Part shown: piece by piece, positions 46,556 through 64,000 of the stretch
Position numbering within the stretch: the first letter of the stretch is position 1
How the letters are laid out: every line of letters begins with the position of its first letter
Source of the DNA: Bacillota bacterium
GTDB lineage: Bacteria; Bacillota; DTU025
Direction: 5' to 3'
NCBI GenBank assembly: GCA_050951805.1
Contig: JBMNJT010000003.1
Location: 96,001 to 160,000 of the forward strand
DNA length: 64,000 nucleotides
Notes under the pieces: generated by a model
The model's input: only the letters and a program-made list of their open reading frames with translations
What the model was told of the DNA's origin: nothing
Databases searched by the model: none
Translations under genes and position numbers: made by a program

Positions 46556-47422
46556 TCATATGGCTATAGAATCCCGAAGTTCCCTGAATACCCGCGCAGT
46601 AAAGCTGGCGTTGCCCTTTAGGACTGGCACATTGCCCAGCTGGTTGCACGGACACTTCCCGCTAGTTCTAACCATAGTCTTTGCCTCCGAGCATAGCTGT
46701 TGAGCTTTACCCTGGTCGATCTTAATGCTCCCAAATCGGGGAGCTGTGCTGGGTAAGGCGCAGGCACTTACAGATTCGCCGTTGGCCTTTTTCACTCGCA
46801 GCTTGGCCATGATGTTGGCCCCTTCCTCGGACCATGACATCGGGCGGCTGGACATGCGATCCGAATAGATGTGGCTTACATGGCCTTCTGCACTGCAACC
46901 TACTACTTCCTGGTAATACCTCCGCCGGTTTTCGATTGCGCCCCACATGTTCGATATGTAAGTGCGGCATCTCTCAACGGATTTTGCCTGACCCTTAGTT
47001 ACCGTGGTGGATCCCGCTTCATCCAGAATCTCGAAGGTTTTGCTGCGCTCTGCTGAATCTACTGCCTTCCATAGCTTGCTCATCAGTTTTTTATCGCCAT
47101 GACAAGCAGCTACAATGTATTTGCGTAGATGGAACAGGTCAGGCAAGCGCACCCCATTCACCATGAATTCGGCCCCAAACGTTATCCAGTTGGCTCCATC
47201 CCCAGTGACGAAGATTATCTCTATGGAGTCGATATCATAAGTCTGCTCTATGTACCAGTATACTTCCCACCAGAGCTCCTCAGTGTCCTTGTACATTCCT
47301 CCAAAGTATTTCGCGTGCACCAGCTCGGTGCGGCCACGTCCAACCCTCTTTCGGCCCTCATGAACGTATACAAGCTTCGGTTCTAACCGCATTCGCTTAT
47401 TCCTATTATGCCGAAAACACAA
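46556..47422 (-). mobile_element. ISLre2-family (UPF0236) transposase, N-terminally truncated
   Basis: KLVYVHEG, GDGANWI, DLFHL, GCSAEGHVSH, RMSSRPMSWS; N-terminal part and terminal repeats not found. Confidence 0.8.
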
Positions 47423-47716: not shown

Positions 47717-49566
47717 GTTCGCCCGGCATGTTTGTTGAGCCGATGGACTGAAAGAAGTCCTGTCACCCAACCAGCGGGAAGACAACCTCAAGGCAAAGGC
47801 GTCGCTGAAAGCGGCGGGGTCTGAAGGAAGCTTTAAGGGGGAACACGGAACGTAGCGAAAGCGAACCGAAGTTGGCCTGTCAGGTGGGTAACCTTGCGAA
47901 GTATGGGAAAGCCCGAAAGCTGGATAACCTGGGGGGGTTTGACGGACGGGTTCGTGTTCAGGCAGACAAACTTAACCGGGGAAGCTCTGCATCATCCAGA
48001 TAGCTGGTAAGCCCAAACAAGCGGAGACGCAAGGATGGGAATATGTGGTGTGGGGTGGCAGATGAGTCCGTAGTAGTTATGAACCCTCAGCCCATGAAAG
48101 CTGGCAACAGACCGGAGGATAAAACTGAGGGGACAGCGGCCGGGAGCTGCTGGGCTGCATTGGCCAAAAGCCTATGCAGTTGCGAAGGGACGAAGGCAAA
48201 CCAAAGCGTGCAACCTAGTTACAGGCAAGCATGGGAGAGAGATAACAGAGGCTGAAATGCCGATGGGAACGGGGGAGCCGGGGGCGACGAGTCTGCTGGT
48301 CCCTGCGCCCGCTCAGCAGAGTATCAAAGTTTCGCGGGGTAGATTGCCTTAGAGCTGCATACAGGGCCGTCAGGGCCAACAACGGGGCTTCCGGGATAGA
48401 CGGTGAGACCGTGGACGCCTTCGGCGAGAACCTGGAAGCCAGGCTGGCAGAGATACCGAAGCCAGACGGAAGCAAAAGGCCTCTTGGCATACCCACCGTT
48501 GGCGACAGAGTAGTGCAGCAAGCGCTGCTCAATGTGGTTCAGCCAATCTTCGACCCCGAATTCCATCCATCGAGCTATGGGTACCGACCCGGGCGATCCT
48601 GTCATCAAGCAGTGGCAAAGGCAGAGAGGTTCATTAATCGCTACGGTCTCAAGCACGTAGTGGACATGGACTTGTCAAAATGCTTTGACCGACTCGATCA
48701 TGACCTGATCATTGAGCCTGTGAACCGAAAGGTCAGCGACGGAAGCGTACTTAAGCTGATCCGGAAGTTCCTTGAAGCAGGAGTCATGAAAGACGGGGCC
48801 TGGGAGGAAACAACCATAGGCAGTCCGCAAGGCGGAGTAATATCGCCTCTTCTTGCCAACATCTATCTTGACTACTTTGATCAGAAGATGAAGTCAAAGG
48901 ACATCAGGATAGTGAGGTACGCTGACGATATACTCATCTTTGCGCGGACAAGGCGACAGGCGGAAAAGTTCTTGGAGATAGCGTGCGAGATCCTTGAGGG
49001 CGAGTTAAAGCTCGTTGTGAACAGGGATAAAACGCACATAACCAGCGTCTATAAGGGAGTGCCCTACCTTGGGTTTGTCATACACCCCAAGAAGCTGGCG
49101 AAGTTCAAGGACGCCGTCCGCAAGCTGACTCCCCGCAATCATGGGATGAGTGTTGAGCAGATGGTGAAGCGACTGAACCGATTCCTTATTGCAAACTGCA
49201 AGACGATAGTAGCCAGCCTGATGGGGTGGATAAGGCGGCGTCTGAGGATGAAGCAGATGAGGGAGTGGAAGAGCTGGAGGGGCCTGCATAAAGCACTTCG
49301 AAGGCGAGGCTACTCAGGCGAATTCCTGAAGATATCCATGAGACGATGGAGGAACTCGGCAAGTCCTCTGGTCAACATGGCGCTTCCTCAGGCTTGGTTC
49401 AGTGAGATAGGACTGATTGACCTCACGAAGTATGAGGTCGGCGTCTTGCATCTCTTCTATGAAGCGAAGTGACTAAGGTTTGCCAGGAGCCGTGTACGGG
49501 GCCCGTACGCACGGTTCTGTGAGAGGGATGACGCCAGGCTGATTACCTGGCGCCACCCTACTCGAT
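47717..49566 (+). mobile_element. Group II intron, IIC-like
   Basis: 5' GTTCGCCCGGCATG; domain V gagccgtgtacg...cgtacgcacggttc; domain VI ending cctactcgat; internal RT ORF; insertion behind a stem-loop. Confidence 0.85.
48411..49472 (+). pseudogene. ltrA: Intron-encoded RT/maturase without En domain, probably inactivated
   Basis: IPKPDG-RPLGIP, SYGYRPGRS, DLSKCFD, PQGGVISPLLANIYL, RYADD. Upstream in-frame RAVRANNGASGIDG lacks a proper start, and several conserved stretches appear deleted. Confidence 0.8.
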
Positions 49567-53034: not shown

Positions 53035-54375
53035 TCAGGCCAGCTGTATATCCAAAGCCTCCATGGAGTCGCAGCGTTTCCTGGCATCGTAGGACTCCTC
53101 AATGAAATAGGCGACTCGGATGCCAGGTTGAAGTTCATGCTTGGGCCCCTTGAAGGCCTGTCTATTGAAGTAGTAGTTGTTGCCATCATCGTCCCTGATG
53201 AACCCGGCTCCAGATGGTAGCAGGTTTGCCACTGTGCCTGTCCCGCGGGGGCTGAGGTTTAGTCTGACGCTCTGCCAATATCTCTCAAGCTCCGGCTTGA
53301 GGTCATGGAAGCTATCGATGTCATTATCGGTAATCCCAAGGCTACTACAGACACTGTCGAGCTTTGTGTTGGTGCCCCAACCCATCCGTTTCCGTTCTCC
53401 CGCGGCATAGGCAGCATGCTTTTTCGCCATATCATCTTCGTTGCACGCTATGAGGACCTGAGCGATTGTGAGAAAAACCTCCCATCTTTTGCTCATGTCG
53501 GTGGAATTGTCTATAGCAACTGCTTCTACTCCACACCGAAGCGCGGAATCCAGATCCCCCTTGCCCAAATATGCCTTGGCCAGAACATGCCTGATAAACC
53601 ACTCTTTCTTCTGGCGAAGGACCAAACGGAGAATCTCGATCGCTTCATCATGCCGGCCAAGTTCAACAAGGCACACACCTTTTCGGTATTTCATCCAGAT
53701 CTCGAAAGTTGGATGAATCTCGGGAAAGGCTGTGAGTGCTTCATCGCAGAGGCATAATGCCTCCTCGTGGCGTGCAAGGGATTGCAGAGCCTTCACGCTA
53801 GCGTTGTAGTAACGTTCTCTGTCTGACGGCGTTCTGATTTGTTTGCCATCATTTCCAGTCCAATAGCTCGCATTGGTCTCAAGCTCGTGGGGGTCGAGCC
53901 TGCCGGTCCATTCCAAAACCTGCTGGGCTGCGCTACTAGTGGCCCTTGGGCCAAGATAGTTCGTCACCTTAAAGCACGTGAGGATGTATGGAGACATGCG
54001 CGAATTCCATTGGCCTTCCGTAAGACGGACTATTTCATTTGCTGCCCCAAAAAACTCCTGCGGATTATCGGCGATTTCCTCGCGCTCCTTCTTGGCGTAG
54101 AGGTAATAGAGGCACCACGCGTGCACGTTTCGTATGGGGCCAAATTCCGGCCATTCCTGTTCTACCTCGTGGCATACAGCCAGGCTCTGCTCATAGTGGC
54201 CGACATGCTTAAGGCAGAATGCAAAGCCCCACCCGTCCCATTCGTTCGCATTGCCTCTGTGTTGCTCCCAGATGACGCTGTAGAATGGCAAGGCCTCTTC
54301 GATGCGGCGCCCTTTGCGCAGCTCCTGTGCTTTGCGCCGCAGTTCGCGCAGATCCGCTTGCGTCGACTCTGTCAT
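53035..54375 (-). CDS. TPR-repeat protein with C-terminal cold-shock/OB-fold domain
   Basis: TPR-like helices (YRKGVCLVELGRHDEA, LAKAYLGKGDLDSAL); C-terminus GTV...GAGFIRDDDGNNYYF...GIRVAY. Confidence 0.85.
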   Translation of the reverse strand: MTESTQADLRELRRKAQELRKGRRIEEALPFYSVIWEQHRGNANEWDGWGFAFCLKHVGHYEQSLAVCHEVEQEWPEFGPIRNVHAWCLYYLYAKKEREEIADNPQEFFGAANEIVRLTEGQWNSRMSPYILTCFKVTNYLGPRATSSAAQQVLEWTGRLDPHELETNASYWTGNDGKQIRTPSDRERYYNASVKALQSLARHEEALCLCDEALTAFPEIHPTFEIWMKYRKGVCLVELGRHDEAIEILRLVLRQKKEWFIRHVLAKAYLGKGDLDSALRCGVEAVAIDNSTDMSKRWEVFLTIAQVLIACNEDDMAKKHAAYAAGERKRMGWGTNTKLDSVCSSLGITDNDIDSFHDLKPELERYWQSVRLNLSPRGTGTVANLLPSGAGFIRDDDGNNYYFNRQAFKGPKHELQPGIRVAYFIEESYDARKRCDSMEALDIQLA

Positions 54376-54438: not shown

Positions 54439-55278
54439 TTAAATGGCGGCCATAGCCTTGTAGTTCCGCTCCAATTCCGCAAAGTCATAACGCACCTCGT
54501 CAAGTTCGGGAAAGGCAAGTCCGCGCGCATGAGCTTCGTCCTTTAAGGCTATAGCCAGATCTATGAAATCGAAGTCGCACTTGGCATACTTCTGTAGCGT
54601 CTTGTAGTACACATCTGCCCGCCTCATGGCGGCCTCTGCAGATTGAGACGGGGAAGCACTGGATGATTCGCCGCCTAGTAGACTTGTGCGAATGGGTGCC
54701 CACAATTTGCCGATGCGGGCTGCGTCTTCACTGTTTGCGGGAGGAGTAGTGAACCTCAGCTCAAGTTGGTGCTTCGCTGTGTTGTAAATGTCGATTCTTG
54801 CTGGGACTCCCTGATTGAATAGGAGGTTCAGCCTTACATAGTGGTTGTAGATCCCGGCAAACTCCGCTTGGATGCCCGACTTCGCTAGGGCTTTCAGAAG
54901 AAGGTCGGCTGCGGTCCTGGCCTGCTCTATTCTCGTGTGGTTGGTGGCTGGCGTATCTTGCATGATCGGCCCAGGTTGCCGGGGTTGCCTTGAGCCTCCA
55001 GCCAAGCGGCAGCCTGTCGCAGCGCAGATCTCACAGAGAGTGCTTGCTGCGACATCATCGCGAATCGCCGCGAGATTGGCTGTGTATACAGCCCTATTGG
55101 GAGAGTAGGCCAGAAGAATATCGCCGATGTAATGCTTCCCCTGCGTCACTCTGAGCCTAGCCTGGTAATCGCGGAATCCGTAGGGATCAGTTTTGGCCAG
55201 AAGTTCGGGGCTCGTCTCCCCAATGGTTTTCTCCAGCTCCTGGTATTTCACTGCCAGCTCTTCTTTGCATTTGGTCAT
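54439..55278 (-). CDS. Hypothetical protein with two TBP-like alpha/beta repeats
   Basis: Intact 279-aa ORF, ATGA-coupled to the helicase; repeats DYQARLRV...GDILLAYSP and NHYVRLNL...ARIDIYNT. Fold call is inference. Confidence 0.7.
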   Translation of the reverse strand: MTKCKEELAVKYQELEKTIGETSPELLAKTDPYGFRDYQARLRVTQGKHYIGDILLAYSPNRAVYTANLAAIRDDVAASTLCEICAATGCRLAGGSRQPRQPGPIMQDTPATNHTRIEQARTAADLLLKALAKSGIQAEFAGIYNHYVRLNLLFNQGVPARIDIYNTAKHQLELRFTTPPANSEDAARIGKLWAPIRTSLLGGESSSASPSQSAEAAMRRADVYYKTLQKYAKCDFDFIDLAIALKDEAHARGLAFPELDEVRYDFAELERNYKAMAAI

Positions 55279-58200
55279 GGCCTGTCCACCGCCTCCACAT
55301 TCTTGAACATGCTGAGTGTCACGAGCAGGTCAGCCAGAGCTTCCTTCCCCTCGTCAACAGTGCCCTGTTGGAGAAGCGCATTCCGAATGTAACTTGCGCG
55401 GGTGATGATCCGGACGCATTCTATGCCCGAGTGGAAGCGCTCCAGTAAAACCTCGTTCATGGCCGCAAAGATCTCCGTATTCTGGTCATGGATGAAACGA
55501 TGAACCTGGACATCCCCATTGCAGCCCAGCTCGACTTGGTCTCCCCTGATCGTCACTTCGAGTGTGATGTCGGGGACAGACTTTTCGTCCACTGGGGCAA
55601 GGCAGGGGCGGAACTTGCCTTCACCTAGGAGATATGCAAGAAACATCATTGCTGAACTCGCATTTATCTGGCTTGCCCATGGACGAGATTCATAGCCCCT
55701 AAGGCACCTGTGGCAACCTTGCCTGTCGCAGTCGCAGCTTGCCACAATCTCATAGGCTTCCGCAAAAAGCTCCATCGAATCGAGATCCGCATAGATATCC
55801 TCGAGTCGCAGACAGTTGTTGCCGGTTGCATCGTATAGCGCCACGTATACAACTCTGTTAGAGCCCGGCAAGGGCGAATCGGAACTTGGGACGAAGTCGG
55901 CATCTATCATCATGCCGATTTCAGAATCATCCAGCTTGTACATGCTCTTGATCCCTCTGAGGATGGCGAGGGAGGTGCTTATGTAAAGCGATGCGTCGCC
56001 GCATACATCCCGCTCAAAACCGAAAACGAGCGTTTCCCGTTCCATCGGATACTCGATGATGAAATGCCGTTCTGTCGATTGATCGAGGAAACCTGTATCT
56101 TTTCTTCGATCGGGGCTGATCGGGCCCCTGTTTGCGATGGTGAGCTGGGCATGGCGTGAATATCCGGCCCATAGCACGGCTCTGTAATTGCGCCCCGTAT
56201 CTATTCGGTCGAGTTTGCATACGATATCTTGCCTGAGAAGGCGTGGACGCTTCTCCGCAAAGAGCTCGTCTTTTTGCGCGGCGAAGGCGCGATAGACGCG
56301 GGACTCGTCGAAAGCAAGCCCCTCTGCCTGGCGGGATTCATATTCCCCGGACGCAAGGATTATGAAGACGTCTCCTGCCATGTGAACCTGTTGGCCCGGC
56401 ACGAATATGTAGGCTGCTAATTCTGGGTCGCGTGAGGATATGATGATTTCATCGGTGAACGTGTGCGCCCCTATCTCTTTTGCACGCCGGAGACCCTCTT
56501 CATCGCAGACAAGCACTTGGTCGTCCCTGAAAGCAAAGTCAGGCATTAGGTTCGTCTGATTGTAAAGGAACTGCTCGAAGGAGCCCACCCGAGAAGCGGC
56601 GGGTTCCTTCAATGCTTTGATCGCATTTGAACACAGCTTGTTCCCGAGGTATTGGCCTATATCCATCGGGACATCGATGACGTTTCTTATCTCCTCTGCG
56701 AACCTCTCCGGCTCTTCAGCAATTTCTGCAATCCTCTGCCGGAAGCCCGCTTCATCCGAGACATGTCCTGCAAGCGCCATGGCGTTTGCATGCTCGACAG
56801 CGACTTTGAGGTTTTTGGCATTGAATGCCGGCGGTGAAACCACACCATCTATCATTCTGTGGGGATCATGGTAATAGACCATGTCGTTGGGGTTCTGTTC
56901 CGAACAGATTGTGACGATCAGCGAGTGCCCGCCACCTTGGCCCCGTCCTGCCCTGCCCGCCCTTTGGGCGTAATTCGCCGGTGTAGGGGGCACACCCATG
57001 AGCAGGATGGCTTGAAGCTTCCCAATGTCGATGCCCAATTCCAGCGTGGGCGTAGCCACTACCATGCTTATCTTGCCTGCTGCGAAATCTCTTTCGGTGT
57101 CAACACGGTCTACCCGCCTGATTTCAGCGCTGTGAGGCCTTACCCGGTCTGCAAGCTCTTGCCAAACCTCATGGATTGACGCAAATTCAGACGGTCCTAG
57201 GTCGAATTTGAGCTGTTTGGGGGATATGTAGAAATACTGTTTGCCATCGGGTGTGATCCGTTCGAGAAGCGGCCCGCGGCTGACAAGATCTTTAACTATC
57301 GACTTCACCTTCGCCTCTCCGGTTCTGGCTACCATCTTCAGATGTTTGCAGTTGGGGTTGGTCGACAGCGCTCTGCCGGGGTAGTCACGTAATCCAGAGC
57401 GTTGCCCCTCGAAATGGATGCCCAAAAGCGATGTGGCCTGGTGGAGCGAGTATCTTATCGCCCGACCCTCGAGGTCTGCTGGCAGACGCGGAGCTTGCTT
57501 GAGTATGGCGCGTTCCTCCACAAAGACTGACAATACGTCGAGTTCATCCTGCTTAAACTGGTCAGCATCGACAATCTGCATGAACTCGCGCTTTGGCCCA
57601 ATGTTGCGCGAAGGAATTGATATGAAGCGGGCAAACCAGACATCGAATTCCTGTGCAAGATTGCGTTCAGGCTCGGACATCCCGCTGGCGAACTCGGCCA
57701 ATTCCTCTTGAAGGCCGAGGTGAGCTTCTTCGATATTGGATGGGTTGTGTTGAAGGCAGTATATCCTCAGCATTTCCTCAAAAAGGGCTGAGGCGAACTC
57801 ATCGTCAAGGATTCGAGATTGTCTGGTGGCTTGCTCACGGCTGTCAACGAAGGCAAGCAGCTTTCTTCTGGGCCTAGTGGTATCCAGCATGGAACGGGCT
57901 ATGCAATGCGTGTATTGATAGTCGGCAAACTTTGGCGACATCAAAACCCCAAGCGCCTCTATTGCCTCGTCACCGTCTACGCGGAGACGTTCTATAGATA
58001 ACGGCCCGTTCTCATCGTAAGCAAACTCAATTGACCCGTAACCGCCGATCTGCGCTATGGAGACCCTGAAGGTTTCTGTGCAACCTCTGCCTTCCGCCGG
58101 CGCATCGTATCCGACAAGAACATATACTTGCAATCCTCGACTGCCCTCATCCGCTTCGAGGTGAGGAAGCAGGCGGCTGCTTTCAAGCCTGGCGATGCAT

Positions 58201-59687
58201 TTTGCTGTATCTTTGCCATACACGAAGAACAGGGGGGCGCCACATTTGGTGCAGCTTTCCGATTGCCCGGCGTGATACTTCCCACACCTGATGCATCTTC
58301 TGAGCAGGCCTTGGATTTCGTGCATGAAGAGGTGGACTCTGAAGTCGAGCACAGGATCGGGACGGTTGTGCGGATTTGGATACGCTCTTGCAATGCTCGA
58401 GTCTATGAAAGATGCAGCAGCCAGAGATCCCCGCAGAATCTCTTCCGGGCTGCCTGCTCCGGATATAGCGTCACTTACGGCGCCTGACAACTCCTCCATG
58501 GACTTCGACCCTTTGCGCAACGACTCTGCGATCGCTTGCATGCACGGGCTCGAAAGAAGGAGCGCGCGTGGGCCATCCGGTGCCAAAAGCCGATCAGGAT
58601 CGGCGAGATCTTCGCGGGTGAAAGAGGTGCCAAGTAAGGAGTTGAGGTTGGCTAGCGCGGCGCCGGGAGAGTCCATTGAAGCCACATTGTATCTGAAAAC
58701 CTTGCACGCGTTCGTGGTTGCGGATTGCAAGTTTGCCTGTGGCGGGTTTTCTGGACGGCCTGACTTGGCAGCCGGACGCACAAGGTCGTATTCGTCTGGC
58801 GCTACGTCCAACAGCGGACAGATGAACCTGTTCACAGCTTCGCCCGAGTTTCTTGAATCCAATGTGGCACTGCAACATATCTGCACGACGGGATTGGGAA
58901 CGGCGTTCTTCAAGCGCCTGAGGAGAAATCGAAGGTGAGTCGCGCGATTGCCCTTATAGCTATGGACTTCATCTAGCACGACAAAACGCAGATGATGGCA
59001 GCACTCTGTGAAAAGCCAGCGCTCCTGCGAGCGAGTGAGCATCCTGTCGAGCATCACGTGGTTGGTGACCAAAATATCGGGCGGTTCTGCCAGCATCTCG
59101 GATCTGTAAGCCAGATGGAAACGGCTCTCTCTTTCTACCGTTGCTTCCAATTCGTCGCGGGGAGTATCGCCGGTGTATACACCGTATGTTATCTCCGCTG
59201 CCGAGGCGCATTCGCCTATCCGCCGGAGCTGGTCGGCGGCCAGCGCATTTGTGGGATATACGATGACAGCCTTTATCCCTTTTTCACGTTCGCGAAGACA
59301 GTAGTCGATTACGGGGATGAGGAAGGACTCGGTCTTGCCGCTTCCCGTTCCGGTGGCGATCACGGTATGCCGGCAGGACGAAATGCTTCGGACAGCTTCC
59401 TCCTGATGCGCGTACAGCCGCTTTATTTTGGGGAATGGACCAGGAAGATTCTTGCTGAGGCCTATGGCTGCGCACAATTGGCCAAAGGGCAGTGCGCTCA
59501 TCTCATATCGCGGGTTTGCCGAAAGAAAAAGGCGGCCGCTGAGCTCGAGAGATTCCATTATCCACTTGACATCTGAATCCCTCGACACCCCGGTCTTTAG
59601 AGCGTGTCTCGCCAGGTTGGCATAGGCATCGCTTACATGCTTTGCAGCCGCGATCGGGTCATACAAGCCGCCGCCATCACGTTGCAT
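55275..59687 (-). CDS. Large SF2 DEAH-type helicase with Zn ribbon, DUF1998/MZB-like domain and C-terminal RNase H-like extension
   Basis: LYAHQEEA, TGTGSGKT, YPTNALAADQ, DEVH, SAT, CIRC...CTKC, TPTLELGIDIG, QRAGRAGR, CDCDRQGCHRCL. Confidence 0.9.
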   Translation of the reverse strand: MQRDGGGLYDPIAAAKHVSDAYANLARHALKTGVSRDSDVKWIMESLELSGRLFLSANPRYEMSALPFGQLCAAIGLSKNLPGPFPKIKRLYAHQEEAVRSISSCRHTVIATGTGSGKTESFLIPVIDYCLREREKGIKAVIVYPTNALAADQLRRIGECASAAEITYGVYTGDTPRDELEATVERESRFHLAYRSEMLAEPPDILVTNHVMLDRMLTRSQERWLFTECCHHLRFVVLDEVHSYKGNRATHLRFLLRRLKNAVPNPVVQICCSATLDSRNSGEAVNRFICPLLDVAPDEYDLVRPAAKSGRPENPPQANLQSATTNACKVFRYNVASMDSPGAALANLNSLLGTSFTREDLADPDRLLAPDGPRALLLSSPCMQAIAESLRKGSKSMEELSGAVSDAISGAGSPEEILRGSLAAASFIDSSIARAYPNPHNRPDPVLDFRVHLFMHEIQGLLRRCIRCGKYHAGQSESCTKCGAPLFFVYGKDTAKCIARLESSRLLPHLEADEGSRGLQVYVLVGYDAPAEGRGCTETFRVSIAQIGGYGSIEFAYDENGPLSIERLRVDGDEAIEALGVLMSPKFADYQYTHCIARSMLDTTRPRRKLLAFVDSREQATRQSRILDDEFASALFEEMLRIYCLQHNPSNIEEAHLGLQEELAEFASGMSEPERNLAQEFDVWFARFISIPSRNIGPKREFMQIVDADQFKQDELDVLSVFVEERAILKQAPRLPADLEGRAIRYSLHQATSLLGIHFEGQRSGLRDYPGRALSTNPNCKHLKMVARTGEAKVKSIVKDLVSRGPLLERITPDGKQYFYISPKQLKFDLGPSEFASIHEVWQELADRVRPHSAEIRRVDRVDTERDFAAGKISMVVATPTLELGIDIGKLQAILLMGVPPTPANYAQRAGRAGRGQGGGHSLIVTICSEQNPNDMVYYHDPHRMIDGVVSPPAFNAKNLKVAVEHANAMALAGHVSDEAGFRQRIAEIAEEPERFAEEIRNVIDVPMDIGQYLGNKLCSNAIKALKEPAASRVGSFEQFLYNQTNLMPDFAFRDDQVLVCDEEGLRRAKEIGAHTFTDEIIISSRDPELAAYIFVPGQQVHMAGDVFIILASGEYESRQAEGLAFDESRVYRAFAAQKDELFAEKRPRLLRQDIVCKLDRIDTGRNYRAVLWAGYSRHAQLTIANRGPISPDRRKDTGFLDQSTERHFIIEYPMERETLVFGFERDVCGDASLYISTSLAILRGIKSMYKLDDSEIGMMIDADFVPSSDSPLPGSNRVVYVALYDATGNNCLRLEDIYADLDSMELFAEAYEIVASCDCDRQGCHRCLRGYESRPWASQINASSAMMFLAYLLGEGKFRPCLAPVDEKSVPDITLEVTIRGDQVELGCNGDVQVHRFIHDQNTEIFAAMNEVLLERFHSGIECVRIITRASYIRNALLQQGTVDEGKEALADLLVTLSMFKNVEAVDRP

Positions 59688-59973
59688 ATAGCCTGCCCCC
59701 CCCACTGAAGAAGTATGAGGGTTTAGAACCTAATCATGATATTCGCACCAAATAGATGAATACCCTTCTAGATTCGTCCATACCATTTGCGAGAATTGCA
59801 TGAAATTTGTAGGCACAAGGGCCGGAAAAGGCGTTACGCAATGTGCAGTCGATCGATTTTCACTATATTTGAAAACAGGAAGGGATCCTAATAGCTTCCT
59901 GCGAATCAATTACATTATGGAACAACAATCGTTCCATTCATGTTCAATACTGAAAAGACGGGAGGGAATCAAC

Positions 59974-62900
59974 TTGGCCTCGACATCGATATCGAGGTTC
60001 TACGACTGGTTCGTTGACACGCTCACAGATGAGAAGCTCGATCAGGTGATCGATGAGGTCGTGGGGGGCGCAAAACATGCGGGCGCACCGCGCAAGCGTC
60101 CCCCCAAAGGAGGCTCGCTGCCCATTCTGCCACCCGACTGGAAAACTAGGTTCAGTTCGGAACAGAAGCGAGAATTCGTGGCAATGATGTGGAAACGCGG
60201 CGTAAGGGAATTCACCGAGCACTTCCATGAGGAATACGCAGAGTGCAAGGAAAAAACAGACTCGTACACCCTCGACAAGATCGAGGATGAAAAGGACGAA
60301 CTGATCAGCGCCTACGGAGGTCCGGCTGTTGTCCTTTGCCTGGTGTTGCAGCCACTCGACTACAAGCAGGAACTGGGCCTTCGGATCATGGATGAGCTTG
60401 GCGACACGTGCAAAGCGCCTCGCCTCAGCGGACATGGGTCTTACGACTTGGCTTTAGGATTGCGAGATATTGCATCGGCGCTTCGCTCAGGCGAAATCGA
60501 TGTCTCTGAAGACTCGATGGAAGCTGCCCTTTCTGATGTAGCCAGAGCATGGGCCGAATACAAGGAGACAAGCGTGGAGAGGCTCATCACTCGGATCGAG
60601 TCGACGCTCAACTTGATGGCAGAGCCATACACCGCATATTCATCCTTTTTCAAGGTTGCCCCGGGCCTTCCTATGGAAATAGGCGCATATGATAGCCTTG
60701 ATGGGGATGACGCCCGGGCGGTCTTAGCCGAACTTGAGGCTGTGGCCGACAAGGTCAACGAGACACGTGAGTTGTTATCACGGCCAGGATTGAGTATCGA
60801 TGAAGTCGAAGAGCAGCTTACTGCCGCGAAAGCTGCGCATGAAGAAATAGCGGCGGCAACCGAACGGGTTATGACGCGCTTGCCCCAGAAGCCTAATCCC
60901 CCCGAGGATCCTACCCCCCAAAACGACTCAGACGGCAAGAAGATTCACCACACCCAACCGCCAACCCCGCCTGAGCCCGATCCCCAGTCCAAAGAAAAGG
61001 GATCTTGCTCGAAATCTACATCGGACTTGGATCCAGGATTGAATGGCCCCTCCGAGGGTGAACCTGAGCCAGAAGAGGAGCCGGACACTGACATAACATC
61101 AGATGAGGAGCCTGGCGAGGCAGAAGAGACTAGTAATGAGTGGGCTGATGGGGAATCCCCGAGTGCTGAAGCCTGTCCCGCACAGTCTGAAGCGGAGCCA
61201 GAGCCTGAAGCAGAACCCGAGCCGGAGATTGAATCGGTTAGGCTCCGCACTTGTCAACGGGAAGAGTTGTCCCAACCCTGTGATCTGAAGTCCGCTATCA
61301 GAGATGCGCTGGCCGCCAAGGATTACGTTGTCGCTTACTGGTTGGCTCGCGAAGCTGAAGCCAGTAATCGCGCCAGTTTAACGTTGCCTTCATGGCTCTA
61401 TGCCGCGTGCTGCCTGGGTTCGGGCGAGTACGCTGCGAACCCGTATGCTCTACGGGCCCTCGACATCATCTACACAGAGCATTCAGCCCCAATGAGCGAG
61501 ATACGTGGAGAGCGGAGGCCTGGCGAAAGCCATGCTCCCTATTACGTCATTGCCGCCTCCATTGGTCCCGCCTTGTTCTCTCCCGACTATGCGGCCTTGG
61601 AATGGTTGAGGGATGCAGAACGCAACCTTGGTGCCAAAGATGAGACCCTTGTCTTGCTGGTAAGAGAGGTCCTAGATCTTCGCGCGCGTGTGAGCGGGGG
61701 CGTAGCTTTCGCGCTTGGGACTCAAGATCAGCGAGCCTCAGCAGTTGATTGGGGCGAAATGGCCAGCATGACGGCTCGACGGATTGAAGATTGGGTCGAG
61801 GTTACAAGAACAGCCAGGAGCAGGTACCTTCACGCTACTCGGGCCCAAAACTACCTTGCTAGCGTTGAGTCGCCTCTTTGGCCTGCAATCGAAGCGGCTA
61901 TGAGCAATGACCCGAGCCGCATCGATACAGTGAATTCTGCATTGAACAGTGATCTATCAGGGCGTAAGGCCATGGAAACACTCATTGATAATGCGGTGAA
62001 GATTACTTCGGCCACAGCCCCGAAGCGAATAGCGCTCGAGGGGCGAACTCGGGACGACGTGCTCAAGAAGGTGGAAAACCTTGCCCAACTTCTTAGCGAC
62101 TGGAGCGCAGCCGTTGCCCATGAGAGAGCGTTCCAGTATGGCGGTGGCTCTGGTGAAGGTGTGACGGCCCGATTGAGGCATATCGGCAAGCTGGCTTCGG
62201 AAGCCAAAGGCCAACTCTCGGAAGATGGAGGATCTGCTACTGCTCTGTCGGATGCCCTTGAAATGGTGGCAAAAGCGATTGATGACGGCGTGCTGCCGCA
62301 ATCCGCGGATGGCACAAGCATGTGCGATAGCGCATGGAAACGCGAACTCGTGTGCCCTCTCTTGCTAATTGCCAACCCACCCGCTGAGGAAATATCTAAA
62401 TGGTTGGAACAGGGAAGCTTTGGGCTGCCCGACTTCGAGTCGACACGCAATGGGAAGCCGGGCTTTTCTGAAACCGCAAATCTCGCTGCTGAAAGTATGG
62501 AGGAGGCATTCTATGCCCACATCGTTCGCGGAGACTTTCCTGCGGCGCGGCTTGCCATGTCTTACCTGTCGCCCGTAGATGATGAGCATGAGTCAACTCG
62601 TTCAAAGATCAACGCCGCATATGACAGGGCTGTGAAAAGTCTGACTAGGGAAGCCATGAATAGCGTGAAGACAGCCCGCAACAAACTGGAGGAGTCGACT
62701 CTGATGCACTTCGTCAACGATGCGGCGCGAAGCCGGCTTGAAGGGGAACTTCTCACGGCCGAGGATTGGCTTGCAAGATCCCAAAGCGCTCCATCAGAAG
62801 CGGTGAATGTAGGAGAGGTATCCGCTCAAATCGATGCTGTCATGAGAGAACTCGATATCCTCAAGAAGGAACGCGCTCGATCATTGGCTCGACAGGTAGA

Positions 62901-64000
62901 AGAGTTCGATCATCAGTTGGATGTCGGACAGAAGGACCTGGCGCAAGAGGTTGCCAACGCGGCGCGGATGCATCTTCAGACTGCGCGCCAGAAGCTGGCG
63001 GAAAACGATCTTGTGTTGGCAGATCATTACATTGTCACTGCCGAGCAGGTGGTGGATCTTGGAGAGGTGTTTGAGGCCGAAGAGAAGTCTCCCAAAGATC
63101 ACCCATATGTTCTGGAGTTCTGCGACATTGCAGGCAAGATAGAGCGCTACTTGGAGGATTACAGAGGACGTCCCGCAGATCTCGTGTCAACGATTCTCCG
63201 CATCCGAAATCCTATCGGGCTCAATATGCGGCGCGTTCCCCCCAAGCGCGTCGAAGAGGCAGAGGCCGGCCTTGAAGCCTACTTCTTCCTCAAAGGCAAA
63301 CGAAGATCGGCAGATGAACCATGGTTTGCCGACAACCTCAAGCTGCTTTTGAGCTTTGTAGGGTTTGGCAGGCCGAAAGTATCACTCACTGCATATGACT
63401 CGCAGTACGCTTACTTCAAAGCCACCATGGATGGCGAGAATATGTCGCCCCTGGCCGATTTCGGTTCTGAGCGAAATCGTTGCTACGATGTGGTGTTGAT
63501 GTACGAGCGGCCTAGCATCACGCAGATGCGTCAGATACTTGGAAGGCACGGCCTGGAGACGTCTAGACCTGTTATCATCTACATGGGCAGAATGCGGCCT
63601 GCCCAAAGAGGAGAATGGAGTGCTGCCTGCAGGGCTGAAAGGATCACCGCCATGTTTATCGATGAGGTTCTTCTGGTCTTTCTCGCCTCAGTCAGAGACA
63701 ACAGACTGGAAGCTGCTGTAGAGTGCGGAACCGCCTGGGGGTGGGCGATGCCCTACAAATCAGCAGGTAAGATTCCCCCTGAGATCTTCATGGGACGGAA
63801 GCAGATGATAAGGCAGATAGGCGAGCCCCGTGGAAGCTCGCTTGTATATGGGGGTCGGCAATTCGGAAAGACGACCCTTCTGCACATGGTCGTACGCGAG
63901 TATCATCGTCCGGAGCGTGGAAGCTTTGCCTGGGTTGAGGAGATCAGGAATGTAGGTTCGCCTGAGGATCCCTATGGTTCCTCCCGGGTATGGCAACTCA
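59974..64000 (+). CDS. Giant (>1340 aa) STAND-type NTPase protein, 3' end outside window; absent from the ORF track
   Basis: Read manually: GGAGGG RBS, TTG at 59974, no stop in frame 1 to the window end; PY...IPPEIFMGR, then Walker A GGRQFGKT at 63850-63873. Confidence 0.88.
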   Translation, partial: MASTSISRFYDWFVDTLTDEKLDQVIDEVVGGAKHAGAPRKRPPKGGSLPILPPDWKTRFSSEQKREFVAMMWKRGVREFTEHFHEEYAECKEKTDSYTLDKIEDEKDELISAYGGPAVVLCLVLQPLDYKQELGLRIMDELGDTCKAPRLSGHGSYDLALGLRDIASALRSGEIDVSEDSMEAALSDVARAWAEYKETSVERLITRIESTLNLMAEPYTAYSSFFKVAPGLPMEIGAYDSLDGDDARAVLAELEAVADKVNETRELLSRPGLSIDEVEEQLTAAKAAHEEIAAATERVMTRLPQKPNPPEDPTPQNDSDGKKIHHTQPPTPPEPDPQSKEKGSCSKSTSDLDPGLNGPSEGEPEPEEEPDTDITSDEEPGEAEETSNEWADGESPSAEACPAQSEAEPEPEAEPEPEIESVRLRTCQREELSQPCDLKSAIRDALAAKDYVVAYWLAREAEASNRASLTLPSWLYAACCLGSGEYAANPYALRALDIIYTEHSAPMSEIRGERRPGESHAPYYVIAASIGPALFSPDYAALEWLRDAERNLGAKDETLVLLVREVLDLRARVSGGVAFALGTQDQRASAVDWGEMASMTARRIEDWVEVTRTARSRYLHATRAQNYLASVESPLWPAIEAAMSNDPSRIDTVNSALNSDLSGRKAMETLIDNAVKITSATAPKRIALEGRTRDDVLKKVENLAQLLSDWSAAVAHERAFQYGGGSGEGVTARLRHIGKLASEAKGQLSEDGGSATALSDALEMVAKAIDDGVLPQSADGTSMCDSAWKRELVCPLLLIANPPAEEISKWLEQGSFGLPDFESTRNGKPGFSETANLAAESMEEAFYAHIVRGDFPAARLAMSYLSPVDDEHESTRSKINAAYDRAVKSLTREAMNSVKTARNKLEESTLMHFVNDAARSRLEGELLTAEDWLARSQSAPSEAVNVGEVSAQIDAVMRELDILKKERARSLARQVEEFDHQLDVGQKDLAQEVANAARMHLQTARQKLAENDLVLADHYIVTAEQVVDLGEVFEAEEKSPKDHPYVLEFCDIAGKIERYLEDYRGRPADLVSTILRIRNPIGLNMRRVPPKRVEEAEAGLEAYFFLKGKRRSADEPWFADNLKLLLSFVGFGRPKVSLTAYDSQYAYFKATMDGENMSPLADFGSERNRCYDVVLMYERPSITQMRQILGRHGLETSRPVIIYMGRMRPAQRGEWSAACRAERITAMFIDEVLLVFLASVRDNRLEAAVECGTAWGWAMPYKSAGKIPPEIFMGRKQMIRQIGEPRGSSLVYGGRQFGKTTLLHMVVREYHRPERGSFAWVEEIRNVGSPEDPYGSSRVWQL

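Follow-up and report, generated by a model that had tools for sequence, protein, structure and literature searches.

A giant STAND-like NTPase gene in a Bacillota bacterium belongs to an uncharacterized family whose members are often followed by a candidate HEPN RNase gene

STAND NTPases, in a definition said to go back to Leipe et al. in 2004, reportedly combine a Walker A motif, a Walker B motif ending in acidic residues, and helical and winged-helix domains (the NOD module) in a tripartite order. Avs (AVAST) proteins and other defense STANDs carry an effector, the NTPase, and a C-terminal sensor in one chain. Passages of Kaur, Iyer, Burroughs, and Aravind (2021, eLife, PMC8195603) describe a mobile two-gene form, the nSTAND2 operon, predicted from genomes only, in which an active STAND protein is paired with a STAND of eroded motifs fused to an effector, mostly GT4 or HEPN. 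Here we analyze a 64,000-nucleotide stretch of DNA (the window) from a Bacillota bacterium (lineage DTU025; GenBank assembly GCA_050951805.1, contig JBMNJT010000003.1, positions 96,001 to 160,000 of the forward strand). At its 3' end, on the + strand at 59974..64000, stop-free translation and homologues place the 5' two-thirds (1342 of ~1970 codons) of a gene for a giant STAND/Orc1-Cdc6-like NTPase. In relatives, the giant is often followed by a small gene whose product ends in a HEPN motif, and giant and partner are best read as a new form of a known pairing, that of an active STAND protein with an inactive STAND-HEPN protein.

We confirmed by translation that the frame is free of stops from TTG 59974 to the window edge at 64000, giving the 1342 uninterrupted codons reported in the initial annotation. 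The chance of so long an open frame, given the base composition of the window, is 1.3e-25, and the longest open frame across 200 shuffles of 10 kb was 313 codons. The same frame is already open from an upstream ATG at 59800 (59800..63999, 1400 amino acids [aa], 3' end open). A Shine-Dalgarno-like GGGAGGG, read from the sequence at 59960..59966 on the + strand, lies 7 nt 5' of the TTG, and residue 1 of the 1975-aa homologue P0002 matches the TTG codon (62% identity over 1349 columns). Based on the open frame, this putative ribosome-binding site, and the alignment to P0002, the start and length first given are right, and TTG 59974 is likely the true start. The 1342-residue frame is the N-terminal part of the product of a real, very large gene. 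As the nearest full-length homologues are ~1960-1975 aa long, ~630 aa should lie beyond the window, and the gene continues past its edge, as first proposed.

The initial annotation had proposed a layout of helical head, acidic Pro/Glu linker, helices, alpha/beta segment, and Walker A motif, and this was borne out by composition and by an AlphaFold2 model of aa 431-1342 (pLDDT 83.8, pTM 0.60; 49-sequence alignment). The head (aa 1-300, 59974..60873, + strand) is a helical domain specific to a small subclade: of 1.84 billion representatives searched with phmmer, only 8 matched at E<=0.001, most of them giants 1914-2255 aa long, and no Pfam family matched. A sigma-70-like nature of this head was considered and rejected, as hhalign does not relate it to the sigma-70 head that cyanobacterial giants carry (described below). 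The linker that follows (aa 300-430, 60871..61263, + strand) is a low-complexity stretch with 26 E, 10 D, and 24 P in 131 residues; it is unconserved in alignment A1 and is disordered. The conserved core of the giant starts at an AYWLAR motif. From aa 431 to ~1111 (61264..63306, + strand), ~700 aa form a conserved all-helical region, and the model contains only helices, the longest of 57 residues, until ~aa 1130, followed by the alpha/beta domain and the start of the P-loop domain. Foldseek found 0 matches to the helical region in the PDB at E<=0.001.

The alpha/beta domain (aa 1112-1258, 63307..63747, + strand) shows the order a-b-b-b-a-b-a-b in the models, which would be compatible with the restriction-endonuclease core a-b-b-b-a-b. 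Across the 49 sequences of alignment A6, invariance is limited to three positions (the G of FGS, the D of DE, and an R), PD-(D/E)xK residues are not conserved, and we treat the domain as non-catalytic. A profile search of the PDB gave no significant match (best E 1.3), and the ESM Atlas feature similarity to NA-iREase1/Mrr_cat, 0.78, is rated by the tool as a lead only. The strand order fits the earlier suggestion of a possibly inactive restriction-endonuclease-like fold, but the fold itself stays unproven.

The window ends within the NTPase, which starts with a PPEIFMGR arginine motif and a Walker A motif (63748..63999, + strand); Walker B and the later domains lie outside. Walker A, GGRQFGKT, occupies aa 1293-1300 (nt 63850-63873), and the residues G, G, R, Q, G, and K within it do not vary across 38 homologues. 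With the head, linker, helices, and alpha/beta domain ahead of it, the NTPase begins at ~aa 1259 of ~1970, or ~64% along the giant, so the unusual inverted layout noted at the outset holds.

We used a relative from a Thermacetogenium metagenome-assembled genome (MAG), locus L002, as a view of the missing part. The relative is 42% identical to the window protein over the common 367 aa, and its C-terminal 998 aa were modeled with pLDDT 89.4 and pTM 0.86. The model runs from the alpha/beta domain through a P-loop core with helical lid and a helical/winged-helix module to another alpha/beta domain and, at the C terminus, a helical one. Helices at 479-532, and helices with a beta-hairpin at 544-667, make up the lid/winged-helix part, which lies outside the window, and what follows the winged helix contains no long repeat array. 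In the first domain past the winged helix (residues 675-842 of the model, from L002:8-3004), GVxLVFGSxAxG stands where a Walker A motif would be. This domain may, tentatively, be a second, degenerate P-loop-like domain; hhalign against the giant NTPase gave a probability of 16% and E 0.0016, a weak duplication signal, and whole-model Foldseek matches to tandem AAA+ proteins span 650-810 columns.

The test set for the STAND assignment in the initial annotation was a Walker B motif and a winged helix, and both occur in homologues. Walker A (GGRQxGK[ST]) is present in 55/55 aligned sequences and Walker B (hhDE[ACST]D) in 53/55, the exceptions being the cut window protein and L077, and the L002 model has a helical lid and winged helix. 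Against the PDB, this model matched Orc1/Cdc6 best by Foldseek (2qby_A, 2e-7; 1fnn, 3.2e-6). The archaeal Walker ATPase 2qen (template modeling [TM] score 0.63 by target), tandem AAA+ machines, and two plant NLRs, NRC4 and NRC2, also matched. Orc1/Cdc6 and classical AAA+ proteins are as prominent as NLRs among the top folds, and a viral structure library returned generic AAA+ matches only. Pfam searches of 49 C-terminal halves matched AAA_22 in 48, AAA_16 in 43, ATPase_2 in 41, and AAA_14 in 35, followed by nSTAND1 in 15 (best 2e-8), TniB in 11, nSTAND6 in 7, NB-ARC in 3, and NACHT in 1. The L002 protein scored 29.6 bits to AAA_22 against a cut-off of 27, while the window protein, with its incomplete NTPase, reached 14.3 bits at best (AAA_14), under its cut-off of 27.

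Based on the fold matches, the Pfam profile, and the conservation of Walker A and B, calling the giant NTPase STAND-like appears justified at the level of the Orc1/Cdc6-STAND assemblage. The closest solved folds are Orc1/Cdc6 and the archaeal PAB2304-type ATPases, which share the AAA+-like P-loop core, helical lid, and winged helix. Sequence identity to these proteins is 12-16%, and unlike the giant family they have no giant helical N terminus, HEPN partner, or defense context. An F-x-G-R motif ahead of Walker A is found both in the giant and in the STAND protein PH0952 (6mfv), whose sequence match falls short of significance (E=0.18). The earlier STAND label stands for fold, Walker motifs, and winged helix, but the domain order is not that of a usual STAND: the tripartite order of N-terminal effector, central NTPase, and C-terminal repeat sensor is not found in the giant.

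Searching with the last 501 residues of the window protein yielded 81 homologues, whose lengths run from 1444 to 2391 aa. Over those 501 residues, the two nearest (1963 and 1975 aa) share 66-70% identity with the query, and a member from Calderihabitans maritimus (1961 aa) aligns end to end at 26% identity. When one genome per species was scanned with a sequence pattern, at least 599 stretches matched, at least 592 of them confirmed as the giant family, and we kept 80 loci for neighborhood analysis; ORF (open reading frame) calling recovered the giant in all 80. These loci come from Bacillota, Chloroflexota, Cyanobacteriota, Acidobacteriota, Binatia, Myxococcota, Pseudomonadota, Planctomycetota, and others. 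We built a maximum-likelihood tree of 54 rows, leaving out 26 loci that were truncated, split, or near-duplicates, and also the window, because its NTPase is cut. The tree is not congruent with phyla.

That the family was uncharacterized, as first claimed, agrees with our searches: the window protein and 26 relatives matched no PADLOC model specific to the giant, and no Avs or other STAND model of PADLOC matched any of these 27 proteins. A literature search, with bioRxiv supplements outside its scope, found no paper describing the family. Two RefSeq accessions of the giant are absent from six supplementary files of PMC13581612, files that, unlike the main text, are also without the word HEPN. 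The family may still be listed in other parts of the literature.

We clustered the 496 proteins encoded by the four genes on either side of the giant in the 80 loci. One cluster, of ~365-450 aa and on the same strand as the giant, occurs in 46/80 loci and is the immediate next gene in 42. The overlap with the giant stop is exactly 4 bp in 15 of its 47 members, and 39 members either overlap the stop or start no more than 20 bp from it. All six of the closest relatives whose downstream DNA is available (L001-L006) have the partner. Near its C terminus the partner has an RNxxxH motif, whose R, N, and H are invariant in 43/43 proteins and which fits the HEPN pattern Rx4-6H by sequence, and Walker A is found in 0/43. 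The ESM Atlas model of the L002 partner (pTM 0.80) has as neighbors outside its own family AAA_35, AAA_22, NB-ARC, and ORC1-type ATPase clusters, at TM scores of 0.52-0.54, and a feature neighbor at 0.97 is automatically named Swt1-like HEPN. Based on the missing Walker A, the invariant RNxxxH, and these Atlas neighbors, the partner resembles a fusion of a degenerate AAA+/STAND-like module with a HEPN RNase. Apart from its variable head, the giant keeps all its domains whether or not the partner gene is in the locus.

The pair is also found on the Salinibacter ruber plasmid pSR118, where RefSeq names the two products 'ATP-binding protein' and 'hypothetical protein'. Plasmid pS15H of Bradyrhizobium elkanii (L081:2374-13329) encodes a 3100-aa relative, labeled 'RNaseH domain-containing protein' by RefSeq, with the Walker A variant GGRRLGKT at residue 2422. 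The next gene there encodes a 549-aa 'AAA family ATPase' that scores 86.5 bits to the partner profile, keeps RNKVAH, and has an extra C-terminal P-loop domain. In L017, L063, L068, and L069, a short giant ORF (1142-1502 aa) is followed by a shared ORF of 291-602 aa and then the partner; based on this arrangement, the giant gene appears to be split or frameshifted near its C-terminal domains.

The closest described arrangement is the nSTAND2 operon, with which the giant family, in those relatives that have the partner, shares the logic of an active NTPase and an inactive NTPase-HEPN protein in adjacent genes. However, the giant matches AAA_22, AAA_16, and nSTAND1 in Pfam, its partner is unrelated to its NTPase by hhalign, ~1250 aa precede the NTPase, and two domains follow the winged helix, all unlike nSTAND2. 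Of the 39 Pfam families that the C-terminal halves matched, 25 were listed, and none of these is an nSTAND2 family. A text search, as opposed to a profile comparison, of the portion of PMC8195603 with the nSTAND2 alignment found GGRQ[LF]GK at unrelated places only and not at the Walker position. By the tests used, the giant family thus appears not to be nSTAND2. With Avs/AVAST, the family shares a STAND-like NTPase, a large helical region, a nuclease-type effector, and residence in defense islands, but in the giant the helical part precedes the NTPase and the effector is a separate gene.

To characterize the surroundings, we scanned with PADLOC the 70 non-redundant proteins of at least 423 aa encoded within three genes of the giant. 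Positive neighbors include BrxHI, a type IIG restriction-modification enzyme, DrmD, DpdF, and DrmMI. In L018:2259-18261 (an Armatimonadota MAG), the giant-partner pair lies between the BREX genes for PglZ (1058.7 bits) and BrxL (967.4 bits) and a SIR2-HerA pair (276.4 and 508.2 bits), and the matches to BrxL, PglZ, SIR2, and HerA are near full length. The family is also found on plasmids, and one member adjoins a transposase gene.

The heads of the giants vary. Cyanobacterial giants (2395-2457 aa) carry an RpoD-like sigma-70 domain at ~230-511, with 472 bits to RpoD PRK07406, and lie near ABC1 kinase, UvdE, and SRAP genes. In the sigma-70-headed loci (L035:5525-12898, L039, L041, L048-L058, L066, and L079), the HEPN partner is absent. 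This head also matches MzaA (PADLOC 7.5e-61, NCBIfam 1.6e-96), the sigma-70-like protein of the MZA anti-phage system. The resemblance is to the cyanobacterial giants only: the window head is unrelated to the MzaA-like head by hhalign, and no other MZA components were seen.

We favor, with moderate confidence, the reading that the giant is an NTP-driven sensor or switch controlling the HEPN RNase. The head or the helical region of the giant would sense an invader cue, and its NTPase would then change nucleotide state or oligomerize. The HEPN domains of the partner would be drawn together into an active RNase, which would cut RNA and halt the infected cell or the invader. SF2 (superfamily 2) helicase-nucleases, DruE-like as in the window or of the PLD-SNF2 type, would be a facultative third component or frequent island neighbors. 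Giant and partner probably form an anti-virus system, a role suggested by context. The initial annotation had called the giant the first gene of a defense system: in relatives it is indeed the first of a two-gene unit with the HEPN partner, while the defense part derives from this context.

Several observations weigh against this reading. Sensing, oligomerization, and RNase activation are all inferred. The window edge falls before Walker B, and the genes 3' of the giant in the source genome are outside the window, so the view of downstream genes comes from relatives only, in which 46/80 loci have the partner. The partner is absent in the other 34/80 loci; in five of these the sequence stops too early for a verdict, and the remainder are mostly the cyanobacterial sigma-70 fusions, which could have a regulatory rather than an immune role. 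Word-limited searches for partners of the two nearest relatives, P0002 and P0003, gave 8 + 9 matches, none attributable to either giant; some partners apparently go with giants P0008 and P0006. On the partner itself, Pfam HEPN_Swt1 reached just E=0.006, in 1/6 proteins, no PADLOC, Pfam, or NCBIfam model names it, and hhalign connects it with none of the NTPase, alpha/beta, and C-terminal domains of the giant (probabilities <=5%). The window protein and the relatives scanned likewise match no specific Pfam, NCBIfam, or PADLOC family, only generic AAA. Finally, PADLOC matched 24/70 large neighbors from 17 loci at E<=1e-10, a figure that is supportive rather than quantitative, because 152 smaller clusters were left out and there is no background control.

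A helicase-centered system would offer a different account of the locus. Passages of 10.64898/2026.05.12.722862 describe Druantia as DruE with variable subunits. According to passages of that source, 10.64898/2026.05.13.724758, and PMC12458937, DruH is a protein of ~1100 aa with immunoglobulin-like subdomains and a C-terminal single-stranded-DNA-binding domain, and Druantia III-B combines DruH with a compact DruE without PLD domains. Divergent from the giant in the window is a gene for a 1476-aa YprA/DruE-like SF2 helicase (55275..59705, - strand), with DEAD, Helicase_C, and MZB/DUF1998 domains by Pfam. In PADLOC it matches DruE3 best (2.9e-75), covering the model only in part, and among solved proteins its closest relative is a 2108-aa DEAD/DEAH helicase (9tu7_Y, 5.2e-44). 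The helicase has no PLD domain and no DruH neighbor. DruE-type genes also stand directly upstream of giants elsewhere. In L068, a full-length DruE3 (1838.8 bits) overlaps the giant start by 4 bp, and an ORF upstream of it, tested as the tail of a DruH, had no PDB sequence match. In L036:1-15797 (a Chloroflexi MAG), a co-directional row encodes a protein of >1125 aa ending in an MzaA-like sigma domain, a DruE1-like helicase of 1650 aa, the giant (2024 aa), and the HEPN partner; the row contains gaps of 43 and 67 bp. A PLD-SNF2 helicase gene overlaps the giant start by 4 bp in 11 cyanobacterial loci, and in L046 one lies 12 bp upstream of the giant with the HEPN partner also present.

We considered whether the giant itself might be DruH and rejected this: the DruH architecture, as described in the passages above, differs and contains no NTPase, and PADLOC found no DruH match in the 27 giant-family proteins or in the scanned window genes. 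Thus, the window has a DruE-like helicase only, not the DruE plus DruH of Druantia III. An account in which the giant replaces DruH beside the YprA helicase, with the HEPN protein as a back-up effector and the head-to-head pair of the window as one system, draws on these couplings, on the lack of a DruH-like gene beside the window helicase, on the separate changes of helicase adjacency in the 54-row tree, and on the variability of the Druantia subunits, and we regard it as unlikely. By tblastn, relatives of the window helicase occur in only 4/80 loci, at 30-38% identity in the RecA cores, and we rejected the helicase as a conserved partner on this count. Helicase and giant are divergent and not co-transcribed, the helicase has co-directional genes of its own, and most loci with the HEPN partner have no adjoining helicase. 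In a survey of the YprA family, the passages seen mention no STAND, HEPN, or AAA partners. The link between giant and helicase in the window is purely positional, and a functional partnership there is possible but unproven. Mapping helicase adjacency onto that tree takes at least 4 + 2 separate changes; thus, SF2 helicases are facultative third components or frequent island neighbors of the giant.

Many STAND clades are non-immune. The giants could accordingly be regulators of transcription or RNA metabolism like MalT/LAL, with the head as the output and the HEPN-like partner as an RNA-binding or processing cofactor. The partner-less cyanobacterial forms with their RpoD-like heads, set near ABC1 kinase, UvdE, and SRAP genes, are what such regulators might look like, and 198/589 STAND clades are classed as defense-associated in the census portion of PMC13581612. 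We nevertheless hold this to be improbable: the distribution is patchy and does not follow phyla, there are plasmid members and one beside a transposase gene, PADLOC-positive neighbors are common, and RNxxxH is invariant. Moreover, the sigma-like head also resembles an anti-phage protein, and the window head is not sigma-like. HEPN RNases are common toxins, as stated in passages of PMC3710099, and the pair occurs on plasmids and near transposases, with an ISLre2 transposase remnant and a group II intron in the window itself. The two genes might therefore be a toxin-antitoxin-like addiction or stabilization module of mobile elements, in which the giant ATPase restrains the HEPN RNase and no phage is sensed. 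This we judge very improbable, since the cost of an antitoxin this large (~1970 aa) and equipped with an intact NTPase would be without precedent, many loci lie on chromosomes amid defense genes, and giants without a partner keep every domain.

The remaining features of the window lie upstream of the giant. The co-directional genes of the helicase start with a 279-aa gene (54439..55278, - strand) that overlaps the helicase stop by 4 bp and belongs to no family: it has no Pfam, PADLOC, or NCBIfam match and a weak PDB match to an Rrp44 homologue (E=0.04). The last gene of this strand cluster encodes a 446-aa protein with TPR and cold-shock-like domains (53035..54375, - strand), which matches PADLOC PDLC01170 (TPR fused to a cold-shock-like domain) at 6.8e-61, Pfam TPR families and DUF7017, and, weakly, PDC-M16B. 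In L028, a TPR/cold-shock relative and a PDC-M16A-like gene lie downstream of the giant-partner pair. Farther upstream is a group II intron (47801-49566, + strand), in which a reverse transcriptase/maturase ORF (48411-49472) sits between Rfam matches to D1-D4 (47801-47971) and to domain V/VI (49485-49566). A 288-aa ISLre2-family transposase ORF (46556-47422, - strand) covers only profile positions 114-382 of 382, and because only the C-terminal two-thirds of the model is covered, it is probably a truncated insertion sequence remnant. A flagellin gene likewise lies upstream, and the GC skew of the window falls from about +0.2 to about 0 near 46 kb.

A broader and more doubtful reading would make the giant the hub of a modular immune class, with swappable heads, YprA/DruE or PLD-SNF2 helicase-nucleases upstream, and an inactive-STAND-HEPN RNase downstream. 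The heads that suggest this are the helical head of the window, of no known type, the complete sigma-70 of the cyanobacteria, and the RefSeq-labeled RNase H of rhizobial plasmids. If this broader reading were true, the giant would link DNA-level and RNA-level attack and would fill the role of DruH in DruE-linked loci, possibly including the window, and the sigma-70 heads would imply that RNA polymerase is sensed or used.

The repeated coupling to DruE-type and PLD-SNF2 helicases bears on the role of variable helicase partners in Druantia-like systems. If the favored reading, a giant NTPase controlling a HEPN RNase, is correct, the family would be a widespread candidate immune system, with at least 592 confirmed matches in many phyla, that current defense-finder models overlook. 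It would also be a test case for an NTPase switch that governs a HEPN RNase in trans, with a sensor-sized part placed before the NTPase and the effector encoded by a separate gene.

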